From Podarcis vaucheri (taxonomy: Eukaryota): a DNA stretch of 64,000 bases. Below the pieces are notes generated by a model. It did no database searches. It was not told the origin of the DNA and saw only the letters and a list, made by a program, of their open reading frames with translations. The stretch lies in the NCBI GenBank assembly GCA_965113315.1, contig OZ220375.1, one strand, 5' to 3'. A program made the translations under genes and the position numbers. Positions 2,691 to 18,793 of this stretch are shown piece after piece. Numbering within the stretch: the first letter of the stretch is position 1; each line of letters begins with the position of its first letter.

Positions 2691-4518
2691 AACTTTCATG
2701 TTTCCTGTGCACTTTCTTTCTTATCCAGCTAACTAACGTACTGGGTACAGTGAGAAAGCATGGTGTTGCAGTCAAGGCATTAGACCAAGGTTAAATGGAA
2801 CAGTTAATTTAAAGAGAATTTATTTTATTCTCAGATTTTAAAATGAAAACTTAAAACTTTTTTCAAATTTCAGCCTTCAAATTTAACCACTTCCCCTCTT
2901 GCATAGCTGTGAAATACATGGTTGTTTTTAATTTGTTTGCTTCTGCTATCATTAGTGTCCAATGACATTCCATTTAAGAACGGCAAGAAGAGTGCCAACA
3001 TGATCATATGATATATATCATTACAGTGGTTTATTTTAAGCAAGCAATTCCTACCCCTCACCCCCATCTAACCTGAATGTCTTGTGAAATTAAGTGCACG
3101 TTTAGTTTTATTCTTCTATATCAAACTGATACAAACTTTTGTAATATTTGTTGGCGGGAGTCCAGAAAGTATACCCTCTGACTTCCAAACATTTTTGTAT
3201 CTGATTTAGGACATATTTTTAATTGCATAATAAACAACACTGCAGGAGACAGCATACAAAGTAGCAAAAAACTAGGGCTTGAGGATGCTGTTAATTAGAA
3301 GGTGTAATTCTGTATCTGTTGCTGGGCTTTCACTTATGTTTGCAAACAATGGATTGATACTCTGCTTACACATCTGAAAAACTAATGCATAGAAAACATG
3401 TTGGGGGTAAGCTAGAACTTGTGTGAAACACAATGCCATATCATGCAAAATAATACCATATCATGTAAAATTGGTGGTATTTTTATTTATTGTGAAAACA
3501 TGCACACTTCATTCCCAAAGCTACCAGGGAAGCTTAGAGTTAGAATTTTCTGTTTCTGCAAAATAATATGTTGTTGCTGATCACTTAAGTCACAATTATT
3601 AGCTACTTTAAAAATATGATGTTTTTCTTCTTCCCACTACCTGAGGTTTCAAATTGCAAAATTGCTTGCTATCATAGTCATAAGCTAAATAATGTCTCAC
3701 TTTGGATTTACTTGAAATCGGGAATCCCCCATCACCTCTAGCATAGCTTATAGAATCTATGCTGTAGATGGATAACTGGTAGATCTTGGTCCCTCGTTGA
3801 GTCTTCTTGGGATTGGGAGAATGTGGCACTGCTTCTTACCTCCCATGTGTTATGAATAAGACTGACCCAAAGGCTTCTGCAGCATCACAGCTGTTGGTGG
3901 AATTATCTCTCATTTCTGAATGAGCCAGCTGCATTCTTCACCATGGGAGGATGAATACTATGTAGAAAAAACTACTGGGAGTAGTGGTGGGGAAATGCTA
4001 AGACCTTATGGCTGGAGGAGCTTCAGCTCTAGAACACTAAAGGAAGCCTGATCCCACCATCTACTAAACTAAAGAACCTGGCCTTTCATACTTTTAGGGT
4101 GTGGGGGGGGGGGTTGTGTGTGTGTACAGCCTATTATGTCAGGTGTGAGGCAGGTGAGTGTGCTTTGGGGAAAACTACTTCATGGGCTAAATGGGGAGAG
4201 CTGGTGGGCCAAATTTGGTCCACAGACCAGAAGTTTCCTATCCTGGATCTTAAGGGTGCCAGTAGCAACATAGGGTGATAATGATATTTGCAGAGATCTG
4301 GTTGTTTGGTATGGATTTAGGTAGTCACAATTTTGGAGTAAGATGGATGATGAGCATGTATTGCAAAGGAGGCAGGAGCTACAGAGGAAGGCTTGCTTTT
4401 TAAACTTTACTGGCATTCTGCAATAATCTACTCTTCCTTTTCAAATCACACCAAAACTTTATTGCTATGGTCAATAACCAGGACTACTATTCATTTTCTA
4501 GATAACCTTTGTGACAAG

Positions 4519-4591
4519 ATGGCTGACCAGCACCAGGATTTCAATATGACAGATGACCATTTGGTGAGCCAAGCTAGATGGAACCAGACAG
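4519..4591 (+). CDS. MAPT: Tau first coding exon (exon 1), short form; alternative in-frame donor extends it to 4720
   Basis: Acceptor ttttctag ends 4501; ATG at 4519; MADQHQDFNMTDDH resembles tau N-terminus; donors ACAG|gtgagc (4591) and AAAG|gttagt (4720), both phase 1. Confidence 0.88.
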
Positions 4592-4840
4592 GTGAGCCCG
4601 ATCGGGTGGGAGACAGGAAGGAGCTTCTTCCACAGGATGGAATCCAGGATGTTGGTTCACAGTTTGGAGAAAGGCTGTATGTGGGGATGGAGCCTGGAAG
4701 TATAAATGGGTTAAGGAAAGGTTAGTCATGAATCCTAGTCAAAACTACTATTGTGCATGTTATTGCCACTTGCTGCCAGCTTTACTGCTTAAATGTCAGT
4801 TTCCTAACAAGGAACTTAAATAATTGCTGTTTAAGATGGT

Positions 4841-5250
4841 TTTATTTATTTATTTAGTAAATATCCATACCACCCTTCATCCAAGGATTACAGGTTTATA
4901 ATACAAAAGCAAAAGAATACATAAAATAGTAACAAAACAAACAAAAAAACAATAACCACCCCACAGTGTTTAAAACACCATATAATGTTTAATTAGTCAA
5001 AGGCCTGAGAGGAGAGGAATGTTTTTGTCCGGCACCTAAAGGTTTGTAACGAAGACGCCAGATGAGCCTTCCTGGGGAGAGCATTCCACAAATGGGGAGT
5101 CACCACAGAAAAGGCCCACTCTCATGTTGCCACCCTCAAGACCTCTTGTGGAGAAGGTACATGAAGAAGGGCCTCAGATGATGATTGCAGGGTCTGGGTT
5201 GGTTCATATGAGGAGAGGCAGTCTTTGAAGTATTGTGGTCCAGAACCAAA
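4841..5250 (-). mobile_element. L2 LINE 3' fragment
   Basis: (TTTA)n tail then sequence of the same type as other L2 3' ends here (gagagcattccaca, gccaccacagaaaaggcc); ends approximate. Confidence 0.6.
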
Positions 5251-8200
5251 GCGGTGCCACCCACCCCTAACTCAGACAGCTGCTCCAGAAGGATACCATG
5301 GTATTGAAATCCACTGGGAGGTTGAGGAAAATTAACAAGGACACATTTTCCCCATCTCTCTCCAACATAGATAATTGCACAGGGTGATCAAAGCATTTTC
5401 TGTGCCACAACCGGGCCTAAACCTGGTTAGTGAACTGAGTTAAACTACAGTTGTCTGTTTTGGGTGTAACAGGGAACTGTAGAGTAAGCTGAACTTAAAC
5501 AAACCCAATGCAGATTATTTGTTGGTTGAAAAGGGGGACAATAACGTATTTGTTATTATTTGATTGCAGTGTTCCCATTTTCAAAGCTTCTACAAAGTGA
5601 TTGTGTTGTCTTTACAGTAAGAGGCAAATCTTAAATTAAGAAATAGATTCACAGAGTATTTATGAAATGTTACAGTAAAGGAAAGATATTTACAAATTAA
5701 CAGCTTTTTCTCCAAGCATCCTTGTCCCTTGAATATTATGTTAAACTCTGGTCTGGGCTACGTGTGACATGTCTCTGTGTAACGTAATGTATATCTCTGT
5801 GCATGTATGTATTTGTGTGTATTTCAGAATTTGGAAAACTGTTTCTCATAGACTTCACTTACTATGTGAAGCGATATATTCTACAGTTACAAAACACCAG
5901 ATTTTCTCTGTGGACTTTTAAAAAAACCAATGTAGTTGTCATTTTTCTGAAACCTTGAAGAATAGTTCTAGCATCCCCTCCCTAGATATCAGGGGTTACC
6001 TCTTCTTAGTGTGCATTCAGGTGTTGCATTGTTTTCTTCAGTGTTCTCTGTGATACTGGTTGTTGAAAGCTTCAAGGAGTATCAGTGCCAGTACTCATCA
6101 CTGAACAAAGTTGATCAAGCCACCGTCCCATAGCACATCAAAAGTGGTATTGTGCATGCTTGGAAGTAAGCTTAACTCAGATTAGTGGGAGCATCCAAGT
6201 ACATTTCATACTGGATGGATAACAGAGTACAATCTTAAACTAACCAGTTTGTGTACCCAGAAGCAAGGATCAAATTGGCATCAAGTGCCAGAGATATCTA
6301 TAAACATAGTAGTATAAGAATTGAGGTTCAGTATTCTGTCAGTTGCCAGCCAGATGCTCCAAGGAATTCCAAAAGCAAAACTTTAAGGTAGTATTTATTT
6401 AATAGGTATAATGTAATCTGCTTGTGGAAATCATTTCCCCATAACCACCTGTTTTCAGTACCATTTCACTGTAGCATTGTCTATGGCACATGTGCAACTG
6501 CCGTACACTGACAGACCACTGGTCTAACTAGCCCAGCATTGTCTACTGCAGCTCTCTGTGGTCCCAAGGGACCATTTACATACACAGCATATGCTGCACC
6601 CCACTAAACTATGAGTCCTCCCATTAACCCAGGACCCACACATACAAGTGAGATCTGCTGGGGTGAAGTTGTCCGGAATGGCTAATTCCTTTTAATTGCT
6701 GTGGAAGTTCTAGAACAGGGTTGAGTTTCCCCAATTAGGCTGCCAGGCTGTTTTCCCAAACTATGTCCACCTGCCCCATACCTGATGTCATATGTGATGT
6801 CAGGTGTGCAGCAGGCAAAGATGTGGCCACAGAAATCAAGATTGAACTACGTGTGCATCTTGCTTGATTTGTGTGCACCAGCTTGGGATCCACCTCAGTG
6901 GTTTATTTTTCATCTTTGCTTTTAGATGTTGCCAGGCTTTAATCATTTCCCCAGGAGATGATTAGTTATTATCAATAGCATTTCTTAGAGTGGTGAATGG
7001 CACTATTTAGTGGGAAGAAACTCCAATGAAAATCCTCATTATTACATATTTTTACATGGCTGGTTTTTTGTTTATATTTTAAAATTTTATACATGGATGT
7101 TTTATGATGGCCTATATTTGTAATGCCTAATAAAGGTTTGGCGAAGTAAGTAGATTAGTTATTAATTCCCTATCCTTGTGATCATTTGGAGATAATTTCT
7201 TGGAGTATCATCTGTGCAACAAGTTGAAACATCAAGAGTGTTCATGGAGGCATTCTGAGTTGCAGATTATAGAATTCCTTTTTCCTATTTGAGCTTGATC
7301 CCTGCTGCCTTCTATAGTGCTTATCTCCTCCTCAAGCAAGCCATGTTAAATGCAAAGAGAGTCTGAGAAGTCCACCCCCCCTTTCTCACTAATTCTTGCA
7401 CCCACACATACTCTCCTTCTCTCTCACACACAATCCCTCCCAGTGTCAACTCTGGTGAAGAACATGGGATAATTGCAGCCTTTTAATCTTGGACAAAAAC
7501 CTGTAACTTATCAAACTGCATCTCCCCCCTCTCAGCTGAGTTTGTGACAGTAACAATTATCTATGGATTGCTAGACCTCTGAGGGCAGCCACCATTTTCC
7601 TCAGATGGCCTCAACTCTTTGTAATAAGACAGTGCTCTAGTGTCTGGAGCTTAGCTCACACAGTCAGTCCAAAGACCTATGGTTCTCATAACAGTGCAAA
7701 ACTTAAGAAGCAATGTTCTTTGTATAATGGAAAGTCCTTGAAACATTGTGGTGATAGCTAAGGAGTGAGTTTGCCACTCGGGATGAGACAGACCTAATGA
7801 CACGATCCAGGATATGAGGAGGAACAAGGCATAAGGAGTATAACAGTGGATTTCCTGGTGAAAACATACAGAGAAATGATTGGACACAGTATTAAACATA
7901 TCTGGGAGGCTTTGCTCAGCCTTGATTTTTATATTCATGGCAGGATCTTTCCAGACTGATTTGTTATGGGACATGGCAGCAAAAGTCTGATGACTATTCT
8001 GTCCTTTACCCCCTATGAAATCAGTAATAATACCACAGGAAAGTTCTTTTCTGTGAGAGTTAGTTACAGCACCTGCTAGAAAATGTTTACTGTGGGGTAC
8101 TGTGGGATTATTTGCTGCTGAAGACTAGTGTGAGGAGCAGCAGAAGAGAGCTGTAGAAATTAGTTTATAGCTAGCTCAAGCCAGTTTTAGAGTTGCTTAA

Positions 8201-10503
8201 ATGAGCCTCTTCAAAAACAGTGTGCACTGTTGTATCCTCAGTGCCAAGCTTTTTCGTAAAAAAAAAAAAAAAGAGCACCCAGCAGAGAAATACAGCTGAG
8301 ATCCCAATTGTGGGGATGTTCCTGTTGATGCCTAGGAAGAATAACAACCTGCATTGTCTCTACTAACAACAGAAATAATAAGACGCAATAAAAATAGCAA
8401 AGATACCTAGCCAGCAAATAAAACTTTTAACAGCAGTAGCAGTAAAATATATAACATGAGCAGAAGGATTACATACCAATTATGGCAAGACCAAGCTATA
8501 CAGTACCCCCTCAAAAGCCATAAAGTCTTCCTAAGCATGAATTTTTAATTCCGTGGTGGAAGGCCAGCAAGCAGGAAACAAAAATAACTTTCTTAGCTGG
8601 GGTGTTCCAAAGTCTGGGCCTGACACAAGAAAAAGCCCACTGACTCCTTCAAACCAAATGTCTGTTTGAAAGCAAGGAAAGGTCTCTGTAGAGGACCTTT
8701 GTGTGTAGTCAGGCTCATACAGAAGGAAGTTACCCTTCACATATCCACTGTGCCCTTATGTAGTTACCTTTTTAATCTCCGAAAGAGCAGTAGATAGATA
8801 TGACAGATATGTCATAATTAGTACATTTATCTGTCCTCTTCAATAGAACTCAAGATGGTGTTGCCAGGGAGGCTCCCACACAGGCACTGACTAGACATAG
8901 AGTTGATCAGTTGCTGCATGAGGTGCCTTCAGGCTGTGATGTCTCCATAGCATCAGGACTATTAACCTCACAGTTAATCAGAGCTCAGGCTGCATTTTGG
9001 CTTAACTTCAGAACTACCTTGTTGTTTTCAATCCACTTCATTTTGAAACATCAAATCCTTGACCTTTTCACTTGGAGAAATATGCAGTATGTGGGAGCTT
9101 TCCTTCTGTTCCATACAGAAACTTCTTAATGATCTCCCTTAATGGAACTATTTGGTTGTCAGTGCAAATAGGAGGAGAAAGTAAGGGTATTCTTGCAGTC
9201 CTTTCTCCTTCCACCATTTGGACATATAAATAAAGTACCCATTGACTTCCTCTTCAGCTGACTTTGCCTCCATGTATAGGCTCTGGGCATTACCTCCCAA
9301 ACCACATGCACCACTACAAATATTTCCATGCTGTTGTGATGCACGTCACCAATTTATTGTGATTGTCCAGAGCCACTTGGAAAGCACTTAGCTGCAGGTA
9401 AGCAACTTCCATTTTCTCTCTGTGCAGTTTTGGTTCTCTTGGACTTAGAATTATGGGGTGGGGTCTAGCGTAACTTTTGTTGTAACCGCAGCCTGCCTTT
9501 GTCTACTTCCTGGCTCATGATTCTTGTCCATTTACAACATTCAGTCATTAGGGCTACCTCCTGATACAGGGGAGAAAATCAAGTCATCTTTATATCGTAC
9601 AGGTATAAAGGAATTGATAAAAGTTCTGAAAAGTCTGTTATGTCAGCAGAGAGAATAAAAAAATGAGCTCCACAGTAACACTTTCTCAAATTCTTCTCAG
9701 TAGACACTCTGCATGTTGCCCAAGCCCACATATCTAAGAACACCCCACATTCTTCCCCTCTTCAGCCAGTAACATCTTTAGGGAGACTAAAGAGGCTCAG
9801 ATCCTGAAGAAAACAGAGAATTATGTCTCCAAACGCTGCCACAATTCAAGCTCATTTTTGTCACTAAGTCCTTTATGCATAAGTTGTAGGAGGTTGTGGA
9901 TTCCTGCTCTTCTGGACGCCCTATTACAAAAAGTAGATATCTTCCTCTTGATTCTAAAAAGTGGGAATTGGCAAATTCCTGACAACAGTGACCAACTGTG
10001 GTGATGAATGACTTATTTACCTTTACAGAATAAATTGCTCTGAACATTTTTTGTTTGCTTTCTTATATAAAGAACCCCTTATTACTGTCATGCTCTAGTA
10101 TTTGGAAGTGCACTTTCATGCAAAGCAAGGCGTGGCCCACAAAATTCTTTAAATGGTAGTAGTAATGATCTGAACCTAGCAGTAAAAGGAAAAAAAAAAT
10201 CTGTCATCTTTGGACTTCTTGATTTTTTGCTTTCGTTTTTGTTGTCAGTTGATGCACCTCACTGATCAGTTGCTTTTAACAGTTTCACCTTAGTTGCTTT
10301 GATGCTGCCACTGAAACTTGAGTTTGGCGTTTTCTAGTTCTGCCTTTTCCTGCTAATGCCTGATCTTTCTGCTAGCTGATGGTCACATATGCATGCACAC
10401 ACTTTGCATTATGAAGATGAATTCAAGCACATTTTGCACCAAGGACAGGCCATACTCCAAAGCTGATCTCCTTTTGCTGAGTGCTGAATGTGTGTATTTC
10501 CAG

Positions 10504-10590
10504 GCTCTCCCCTCCAGATACCAGTTGATGATGGATCTGATGAACCAGAGTCTGAGGCTTCTGATGCTAAGAGTACCCCAACTGTGGAAG
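10504..10590 (+). CDS. MAPT: Tau exon 2 (N1 insert)
   Basis: 87 nt, phase 1/1; (G)SPLQIPVDDGSDEPESEASDAKSTPTVE; ttccag acceptor, G|gtggga donor. Confidence 0.96.
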
Positions 10591-13097
10591 GTGGGAACTC
10601 TTTGTCTCGTTACTTTGAAATTCACAGCAGTCAGCACTTTATTTTTTAGAAGTGCACCAATATGTTTCCCTCCTAAATAAGCAGAGACTTTCTTTCATTT
10701 TAAATTATCTGTATTTAGTTTTGACAGTTGCTGACACAAGAATCACTATACACAGGATAAACTGCATTCCTACTTCCTCAAATCCAGCATGTCTACACTC
10801 AGCCAAATAATATATTCAAGGTCCTTGATAGGGTGTTAGATTTTGACATTCTTTTAACAATTATTATTCAGTAAGAAATTAAATAGAAAAACTTTGCCAG
10901 CAGGAAGGCCCTTTCCAGCCCACTGAAGAAAATTCAGACTGTAGCCACTTTCTCTTAAGGTTCTATCTATACTACTGGTTTACTTGATTTCACGAACTCT
11001 GGTCTTCCTACAGCATCTACACTGTAAATTTCTAAGCATAATAGGGATATGCAAGCTTAACTAGACTGCTGTCTTACATACTGCAAATAAACTGATGATG
11101 TGCTAGTCATTTATGAGCTGAAAGAAATATTGTTCATTAATAAATTATAATCTATAAATCATTCTTGCACCCCACAGGTGAGTGGATGGGTAGTTTAAAA
11201 CCTACTTGCATGGTTAAAAGTTGAATATACTGTTTGAAGTGGGATAAATTTCCACACTATAATTTAAAAGTTAGTCTTGTGGCAGAATCCCAATTTCTCT
11301 CTCTCTAATTGTGCCACATTTGCCTGTTAAGCCCTTTATCTTATCGAAATACTTGCAAAAGTGCACCCTTGAGTGAAGTTATTGTTCTCTCTTCTGTTCC
11401 TCGTTTAAACTGAGCACATTTGTAGCATAAGATTGTCCTGAATCCAGTGCAATGGGAAAGTCTTAGGTGAGGATGGCCGAGTTACTCAACCTGATTTGGG
11501 AGTAGGCAAAATGTAGGTGACAAAAGTTGATAGAGGGGGAAAGCCACGAAAATAATGTGAGTCAACTCTTGGGCAGAATGACTCAAGGTAACCTGTAGTG
11601 TATGCATGTCCTTATTGGTATATTTAAAGCTACATTTCAAAAATATTGAAATGAAACTTGGTGGCGTTTTTTGTGGGAGAGAGGGAGAATTAAATTACTT
11701 TTCTCTTTTGGGCTGGAAATGCTCTTGAAGATTCAGATATCAAATGTGTTCTACACTTATAACTACTTGTTCCATTAGATACTATTTTTTGGTAACACTG
11801 TAATCTGTGAAACCTGGCAAGTAGAATCTTTTAGATTGGGCATCTTGAAGAATCATTAAATCCATAAGGTAAGCAATTTTCTAAATGTTCTTTCGGTAAC
11901 AACCAAATGCACACAATTTTGGCAACAAATATCAAAAGATTGAACAATACACAAAACTGAAGCAAATTTATTTGCAACCATATCCTTAGAACATCATCAA
12001 ACAGAAATATTTTGAAGGATATCAGACATTTTGAGCTCGTGGCATCAGTAGCGTTAGGGAAATCAACAAAAAAGGGAAAATATCTTATAAAAATTATTCA
12101 CTCTGAAGATCTTTAGCTGAAGAAGGACAATGGATCTATGTGCCAGTCCTTTGAAAAGGGCCAAAATAGCTAACATAATAATAGTTTATCACTTGTTTCT
12201 CTGGGCTCCTTTGGGAGCAAGGGCAGGATATAAATTTAATAAGTAAGCCAGTCAAGTCAACTTTGCTGTCCCTAGATCTCTTTTCTCAGAAAAAATGGAG
12301 GTAAAAGTAAAAAATAAATAAATCTCCCATTGTACTCCCATTGTCTGTCTCATTGTCTGTCCTGTCTATGTTCTGTCTCTTGCTTTGCTTGAGTGAAAAA
12401 CGTGGGTTAAGGAGTTGGTAGTGGAGCATAAATTGTATACTCTGTAACTTGCCATGAGTGGTAAGTCAAGGCCTTTAACACCACTGACCTACCCAAGAAA
12501 ACAGACACTGCACATGCTTGGGAAGTTTCTGGTGTCATGTTTCTGACACCAGGCTTAGTGGTGAACCCTCTGTTCTTTGTATGGCCACTTTCCTATTCTG
12601 ATCACCCATAAACACAAACCTATGCCACATGTGCCAGGGCTCAGTTTAGGTATCCCCTTTATCTGGAAGAAGCAAAAATGAGTCCATGAAAGTCTGCCTC
12701 CTACAAACCTCTGGATGACTCCATGAGCTGACAAGTAAACATGGGGGTGAGGAGAACTACACATTTTAACTTCAGGGAGGTGGAATGAATTGAACAAGGG
12801 TTTTGGATGTGAGCTTCAGGTTCAAATTCCTTTTCAAGCTTGCAGTTTGTGTGGCTTTGAGCAATAATTAGTATGCAGATTTATATCCCAAACCTTTTAG
12901 GTTTAATTGGCTCTTGTTTCTGGATGCAAACCCCATCCTCATCTCATCTGAAGAAAGCATGGTACATGACTGCCTTTGAGTTGCCGTCTTTTACAGCAGG
13001 CTATTACTCCATTTTCTTAAAGTAGCTAATATCTGAAGAATTTTCTTTTTCAGTGCTTTTAAAGTGACAGTTGCTTCATTTTGCCTTTTTGTTTCAG

Positions 13098-13184
13098 ATG
13101 CTACTGCTCCATTAGTGGAGGAGAGAGTGCATGAGAATCGAAATGCGACTCGCCAGCATGCAGAGATACCTGAAGGAAATACAG
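13098..13184 (+). CDS. MAPT: Tau exon 3 (N2 insert)
   Basis: 87 nt; (D)ATAPLVEERVHENRNATRQHAEIPEGNT; tttcag / gtgagg. Confidence 0.95.
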
Positions 13185-15553: not shown

Positions 15554-15616
15554 CTGAGGAAGCAGACTTAGGCTCTACTTCTAGCCTTGAAGACCAGGCT
15601 GCGGGGGATGCTCAAG
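15554..15616 (+). CDS. MAPT: Tau exon 4
   Basis: 63 nt; (A)EEADLGSTSSLEDQAAGDAQ; tag / gtaagt. Confidence 0.94.
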
Positions 15617-17628: not shown

Positions 17629-17718
17629 AGTAAATTTCCTAGAATTTACTCCCTTTGTGGGAGATCATTGATGGGCTAGAGATTTTTTTTGGGGGGTGGG
17701 GAGTCTCTTCATCATTAG

Positions 17719-18447
17719 GCAATGAAATTGAATCTGCACAGACTGATAAAGCCCATCAAGCAGATTGTGTGGAACCCTTTTATGTAGCCACTATGCTAAA
17801 GATGCCAGATGGATACATGGAGTTCCACACAGCTGAAAGAAGCCAGGAGAAGGCTGTCTTCAGAATTCATAATCAGTTGCAGGATCTTATTGAGAAAGTG
17901 GTTATTGGCATGCCCACAACATCAGTACCTAAAAAAGTTGGTGCAGGATTGGGACCAGCCAGCCTAAAAATGATGGAAGGGTTGGGACTTTTGAGAGATT
18001 CCCTGCTGATTTCGATAAGCAAGCCGGTGGGAATTGCTCACACGGCATATTTTCCAACAGCTGATGGCTCACTCTACTTCAGAGGTGATTTGAAAGAAGT
18101 TGCATTTGGACAGATAAAAGTTGAAGACAGAGACACTGATGAAACAACTCAGCAGGATAGTCTGGATGAGAGAAGGCCATTCGTATCAGAAGATGAAAGG
18201 TGTGCCATGGTTGCAGAATTGGACCCCTCTGAGCATATTTACCAAGTTGAGGTTGAAGCTAATGTCCCGAAGGAGAGCAAAACTTTGGAATGTGTACTAG
18301 AAGTAGGCAAGCTTTCAGGGGAGAGCATCTCCCTGGAAGGGGAGACATTGGAAACTGTGCAGGCCTCAGAACTGCAAAAGGCTTCTGGAAAAAAAGCTGC
18401 CTATTGTACACCAGAGAAACAAAGCAGTCGATTGCCACTTCTGAAAG
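17719..18447 (+). CDS. MAPT: Tau exon 4A (big tau)
   Basis: 729-nt stop-free frame inside ORF 17655-18554; phase-1 acceptor cattag|GC and donor AAAG|gtgtgt; ends SSRLPLLK like the mammalian 4A end; lies between exons 4 and 5. 5' boundary less certain. Confidence 0.85.
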
Positions 18448-18793
18448 GTGTGTGCATGTGCGTGTGTTGCTCAGTTGTCCTGCTTAAAGAAAGCAAGACT
18501 GCTAAAACCACAAATGATTTTGCACATCTCTCCCTGCTTCGGCAGTTTTCCTGATAAATTGACAGGAAACAAAAATGTTTGTGTGGCACTGCTCTACATC
18601 CATGGCTGTCTGCTTCATTTGGACTTGGGGTGTGAGTACAGTCCATTAATACAATGGCTGCATGCTTATCCTGCATGGATGCTGATGCTGCTTCTCACCA
18701 ATCACCACCGCAATTTATATTTTGTGGAATTTTAGCTCTTTTCACTTCATCTGAGATCCTCCACTGGCAGGTCTTATAACCAATTAGATAAGA

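Follow-up and report, generated by a model that had tools for sequence, protein, structure and literature searches.

Exon 1 of the tau gene (MAPT) of the lizard Podarcis vaucheri has two working in-frame 5' splice sites. Its transcripts very probably encode tau with or without a stretch of 43 residues that is homologous to about residues 16–44 of human tau and likely ancestral to tetrapods. Lizard MAPT exon 1 is a real, conserved alternative 5' splice site exon, whose isoforms stand unremarked in public gene models.

Two donors in MAPT exon 1

The window, that is, the whole stretch of DNA analysed (64,000 nucleotides of contig OZ220375.1, assembly GCA_965113315.1), carries MAPT on the + strand, to which all positions below refer. 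The gene was identified by the exon-2 motif, the proline-rich region, four microtubule-binding repeats and the tau C-terminus, which follow downstream in this order, and a search of the genome gave a single match for the stretch. Exon 1 starts with untranslated sequence (4502..4518) behind an acceptor, ttctag; RNA contigs of four runs (X5, X8, X11 and X12) share a loose end before 4500, which we read as an upstream exon. The ATG at 4519 opens a coding core common to both forms (4519..4591, 24 codons plus 1 nt), as seen in the sequence and in RNA contig coverage. Donor A (CAG/GTGAGC, 4589..4597) cuts after 4591, 73 nt from the ATG, and donor B (AAG/GTTAGT, 4718..4726) cuts after 4720, 129 nt further on; both are in phase 1. 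The extension between them (4592..4720) is free of stops and gives the 43 residues listed in a preliminary description of this DNA, 8 of them acidic and 6 basic, with the GDRK codons at 4609..4620. The sequence thus bears out what that description had claimed, two in-frame phase-1 donors at 4591 and 4720 enclosing a GDRK extension of 43 residues. The 67-residue long exon 1 is identical to that of the tau models of Podarcis and Lacerta agilis, and the exon 1 peptide is 100% identical to named lacertid tau proteins.

Could such an arrangement have arisen by chance? The donor consensus is CAG/GTAAGT. Donors A and B each match it at 7 of 9 positions, and they are the sole GT sites scoring 7 within 4520–5000. 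Within intron 1, 58 of 5340 start points (1.1%) are followed by at least 20 open codons that lead, within 200 nt, to a donor-like GT in phase, and 342 of 5471 (6%) are open for 43 codons. Given these background rates, a chance origin is unlikely, if still conceivable from sequence alone; it is the RNA joints and the conservation that decide against it.

Three other features of the region were observed. An open frame already precedes the ATG (4354–4518), and in many lacertid and anole models MADQ is preceded by N-terminal additions that differ between models and were likely read in from upstream exons during annotation. Further downstream, a long acidic open frame (17643–18551) contains a block resembling exon 4a (big tau). 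Two intronic segments (4990–5300 and 6970–7150) attract many partly matching reads or contigs in all of the runs X1, X13, X23 and X24, as expected of interspersed repeats.

Use of both donors was assessed in 8 of 24 listed sequencing runs, selected for containing this stretch. Their labels ('RNA?') were guesses until spliced joints appeared. The spliced runs examined were labelled organism A or B, and the runs containing all sampled words organism C. Joints from donor A occurred in all eight runs, and joints from donor B in four of the eight, from three studies. In each of these four (X5, X8, X11 and X12, organism A), both 4591 and 4720 were joined to 10504 with GT..AG ends, so the possibility, raised in the preliminary description, that only one donor is ever used has failed. 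Exon 1 is therefore an alternative 5' splice site exon, with two GT donors, one acceptor upstream, and both donors joined to the same downstream acceptor in the same four runs. This acceptor opens MAPT exon 2 (10504..10590, 87 nt). RNA joints also place exon 3 (13098..13184, 87 nt), which is joined directly to donor A as well, and RNA contigs place exon 4 (15554..15616, 63 nt). All three spliced paths tested kept the frame, with 0 stops.

Contig depth, which is not an expression level, was 10.5, 4.98, 5.4 and 5.84 for the donor B joint and 5.99, 8.4, 4.07 and 2.3 for the joint from donor A to exon 2 (runs X5, X8, X11 and X12); the contig that joins 4591 to 13098 in X5 had a depth of 17.8, again not a measure of expression. 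In X1, X13, X23 and X24 there was no donor B joint, and that from donor A to exon 3 was the only one. About 12% of the raw reads of each of X23 and X24 gave one read on the donor A–exon 3 joint and none at donor B, which is too shallow to judge. In X1 and X13, low-depth contigs run unspliced across donor B from the extension into the intron, as would be the case for pre-mRNA or a retained intron, with the long gene models being annotation artefacts. This explanation is refuted by the four runs in whose contigs 4720 is spliced to exon 2, with GT..AG at the intron ends and 0 mismatches over 4563–4718, and we regard its probability as close to nil.

The direct joint of exon 1 to exon 3 (4591 to 13098), in which exon 2 is skipped, was found in 5 of 8 runs and in 19 of 179 squamate proteins. 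According to reviews, human tau never contains exon 3 without exon 2 (PMC6999090, PMC8909800), and in the open-licence literature we found no description of exon 3 without exon 2 in chicken. The lizard joints suggest that lizards do not follow the rule 'exon 3 needs exon 2'.

The extension in other squamates

The preliminary description suggested that this lizard may keep both a bird-like short and a mammal-like long N-terminus. Both forms are indeed spliced here; they are not special to this lizard, as the dual donor is widespread in lizards. Among 98 matches to the long exon 1, 40 were long forms, from three species of Podarcis, Lacerta, Zootoca, two species of Anolis, Lerista, Tiliqua, Eublepharis and Gekko, with Sceloporus added from another search. 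For seven species (Podarcis raffonei, P. lilfordi, Lacerta agilis, Anolis sagrei, Sceloporus undulatus, Tiliqua scincoides and Eublepharis macularius), the public gene models, which are predictions, include both forms. Short models alone were found among the gene models searched for snakes, Pogona, Varanus, Elgaria, Rhineura, Hemicordylus, Salvator, Euleptes and Paroedura, which may reflect either loss or thin RNA evidence. In one king cobra model (P0415) the reading continues through donor A into a stretch recognisable as extension-like, though diverged, while the other snake models seen were all short; this is a hint that the long form is decaying in snakes.

The extension is in frame in lacertids, anoles, Sceloporus, skinks and geckos. 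Across the nine aligned squamate extensions the frame is kept in all nine, at lengths of 43, 47 and 50 residues, and the extension also aligns with mammalian exon 1 (below); the stops or frameshifts in related lizards that would have spoken against the preliminary description were not seen. Zootoca shares 23–29 of 42–43 extension residues with Anolis, Tiliqua and two geckos, compared to 26–28 of 29 residues of exon 2 and 18–21 of 25–29 residues of exon 3. The extension is thus less conserved than exon 2 and close to exon 3. Between Lerista and Gekko, 29 of 47 extension residues are identical, compared to 55 of 122 in the 4a block. The lacertid extension is among the more diverged copies: it has Asp at the position of human Tyr18, where skinks, geckos and caecilians have Tyr, and anoles and marsupials Phe. 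Human Tyr29 is kept in no squamate.

These data bear on whether donor B might be a leaky relic, which yields the long form at a low rate and without distinct function, and which is disappearing here as it seemingly is in snakes and birds. The four runs of eight with 0 donor B joints, the short-only models from snakes to Paroedura, the diverged king cobra read-through and the lack, in the lacertid copy, of an aromatic residue kept by other lizards are all consistent with such a relic. Set against it, donor B contigs reach depths of the same order as those linking donor A with exon 2, poor as this measure is; all nine extensions have an intact frame, and their identity is near that of exon 3. 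On balance we consider a relic quite improbable, and favour a conserved alternative splice site.

Homology and age of the extension

To compare the extension with tau from other lineages, we used a profile built solely from the nine squamate extensions, with the core and exon 2 left out, and 1000 shuffles of each target. All five marsupials scored 18.0–23.6 bits, and 0 of 1000 shuffles reached any of these scores. Five of six placentals (fruit bat, leaf-nosed bat, seal, armadillo and horse; 12.8–23.8 bits) likewise beat all 1000 of their shuffles. The sixth, deer, has no motif, and its score was not significant (reached by 237 of 1000 shuffles). Among amphibians the score was reached by 0 of 1000 shuffles for Rhinatrema, 1 of 1000 for Microcaecilia and 5 of 1000 for Ambystoma, while for the fishes sturgeon (324 of 1000) and reedfish (143 of 1000) it was not significant. 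As a control, 1980 windows of other tau regions reached at most 8.6 bits.

The alignments agree with the profile. Marsupials read S-GEPFQIGGERKD..QGGYTLLQD where Anolis reads T-GEPFQVGDRKE..QGG, with GEPFQ common to both, and the GDRKD and QGGY of human tau (PDB sequence) align with the GERKD and QGGY of dunnart. Marsupial GERK and bat GDRK connect the lizard GDRK codons to G21-D22-R23-K24 of human tau in the alignment. Human tau was linked to the lizard through these marsupial and bat sequences rather than by a direct score on the lizard profile, because a direct lizard–human search aligned this region wrongly, with human D22 opposite a lizard residue further on. GTYGLGDRKD, as in human tau, occurs in 27 of 79 placental-type proteins, from bats, in a set selected for the motif, so that this count is no frequency. 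Apart from its closing LK/LRK, the final third of the extension in squamates has no counterpart in mammals.

The misaligned direct search from lacertid to human, and the shortness of the motif, would fit convergence or chance likeness in a low-complexity, disordered region. This is largely refuted: the motif is at the same position of the same exon, GEPFQ recurs in Anolis and marsupials, 10 of 11 mammals tested were unmatched by any of 1000 shuffles, and control windows stayed at or below 8.6 bits. We consider convergence extremely improbable, and the 43-residue extension is, on the alignments, homologous to mammalian exon 1. The motif is present in bats, seals, armadillo, horses, marsupials and lizards, and is therefore not confined to primates.

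How old is this segment? A search of 50% representatives found long N-termini in opossum, dunnart, axolotl, two caecilians, sturgeon and reedfish, and short ones in one turtle (Pelodiscus) and one bird (Calypte). Tau proteins were long in 53 of 53 cases from marsupials (two more pattern matches being unrelated stretches) and in 13 of 13 from axolotl and caecilians; no short models were seen among the marsupial or amphibian proteins examined. Those of crocodilians were short in 21 of 21. A further profile search was informative for crocodilians alone, as its best 120 of 2090 matches scored at least 96 bits, and crocodilian short forms score 96–97. On this profile squamate long forms score 80–89 bits and the short forms of turtles and birds about 65, so that the best 120 of 2090 are mute on long forms in turtles and birds. 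Placentals among these best 120 were selected for the motif, and their counts give no frequency.

The preliminary description proposed that the GDRK segment could be ancestral to amniotes. The alignment with mammalian exon 1 supports this as far as it goes; its date needs amending, because the segment is also found in caecilians and axolotl, and is likely older than amniotes, with the long form probably ancestral. By parsimony, the stretch would have been present in the tetrapod ancestor. From these comparisons, the 'primate-unique' 18–28 motif is likely a stretch ancestral to tetrapods and lost repeatedly, rather than a primate invention. Donor A may have arisen in sauropsids or earlier. It might predate amniotes, because the S/T-G-E junction that carries it is found in sturgeon, a caecilian and every marsupial protein examined; in the form S-G-E, it occurs in the proteins of sturgeon, Microcaecilia and marsupials.

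One further, bird-like locus (L002) is host DNA in a metagenome contig with MAPT exons 1–3, and its exon 1 core is nearest to Calypte among six compared. It has the same donor A 9-mer as the lizard and a stop 30 codons behind donor A. The donor-B-like site at +130 is weaker (5 of 9) and not in phase. Its DNA shows a modest likeness to the lizard extension, whose score was reached by 26 of 2000 doublet shuffles and by 0 of 210 and 0 of 550 intron windows, the bounds having been set post hoc. This single locus fits a decayed extension in birds. In L002:62-270 the first Met codon position is ATA, so the protein would start at a later Met.

The exon 1 switch and known tau systems

We propose that donors A and B, which are equally scored, would compete for U1 snRNP. 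Their choice would set the length of the projection domain and the presence of a GDRK-type putative binding stretch: in this disordered domain, use of donor B would add 43 residues, including the homologue of human 18–28. Historically, the long exon would be the old state, with donor A in use by the sauropsid ancestor. Many lizards would have kept both forms, and crocodilians, probably birds and probably snakes the short form alone. Mammals would have kept the long form alone, with later internal deletions of the motif in mouse, deer and New World monkeys. A bolder reading strikes us as rather unlikely. Under it, exon 1 with its two donors would be a tau switch of ancient vertebrate origin that lineages later fixed in one setting: the donor A region would have been deleted in placentals, donor B would have decayed in archosaurs and snakes, and the disease-linked 'primate' motif would still be toggled in a regulated way in many lizards. 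A conserved binding role of the motif in lizards seems to us slightly less likely than not, since neither tyrosine position survives in the lacertid copy. With Asp at Tyr18, and with Tyr29 missing in squamates, the binding described for human tau may not apply to the lizard.

The switch adds exon 1 to the alternatively spliced exons of tau, and suggests that a motif treated as primate-specific is likely both ancient and switchable. Reviews call human 18–28 primate- or human-specific, and use this to account for the shortcomings of mice as models of tauopathy. Should the motif be ancestral, the mouse difference is a loss, and bats, seals, horses and marsupials carry the motif naturally. Lizards, with both states from one gene in one animal, would offer a natural control for its effect on binding partners, secretion and microtubule spacing.

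The human motif, which is absent in mouse, is reported to bind synapsin-1, synaptotagmin-1, 14-3-3 and annexin A5 (PMC6999090, citing Stefanoska 2018) and to bind EB proteins and aid secretion (PMC6342323). PMC6397507 terms it 'primate specific', and PMC12325407 describes marmoset and squirrel monkey as lacking the 'primate unique motif'. Known MAPT splicing involves cassette exons 2, 3, 4a, 6, 8 and 10 and alternative sites of exons 4a and 6, with exon 1 listed as constitutive (PMC8909800, PMC9755724). The portions available of these two papers and of PMC6759874, PMC3785453 and PMC11782843 hold nothing on an exon 1 donor switch. In the open-licence literature, with subscription journals mostly outside it, we found no description of such a switch, of the age of the motif, or of the motif in bats, marsupials or reptiles. 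RefSeq and UniRef tau models of Podarcis, Lacerta, Zootoca, Anolis, Sceloporus, Tiliqua and Eublepharis already contain the long N-terminus; they are automatic, are named 'isoform Xn', and came with no description of the switch or the homology that we found. Because these isoforms are already in public gene models, we regard the exon 1 switch as a variant of known tau splicing.

Like the splicing of exons 2 and 3, the switch alters the length of the N-terminal projection domain in frame. It differs from the known MAPT events in using an alternative 5' splice site inside exon 1, and the lizard gene differs further in that exon 3 is also used without exon 2. Sundermann et al. 2016 found their motif II (residues 27–34) in mammals only (PMC4815063). 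Compared by alignment rather than with their subHMM, the QGGY..QD part of motif II aligns with QGG...Q of gecko, skink and anole and with amphibian SGYTLLQ, so that it has a counterpart without Tyr in the lizard extension and one with Tyr in caecilians (GYTLLQ). The human 18–28 motif and its lizard counterpart occupy the same place in exon 1 and share an aligned G-D-R-K-D/E core. They differ in that the lizard extension has 43 residues compared to about 29 in human, and in the lacertid Asp at Tyr18. Finally, whereas human exon 1 is described as constitutive (PMC6999090), in the lizard the stretch is switched by donor choice.
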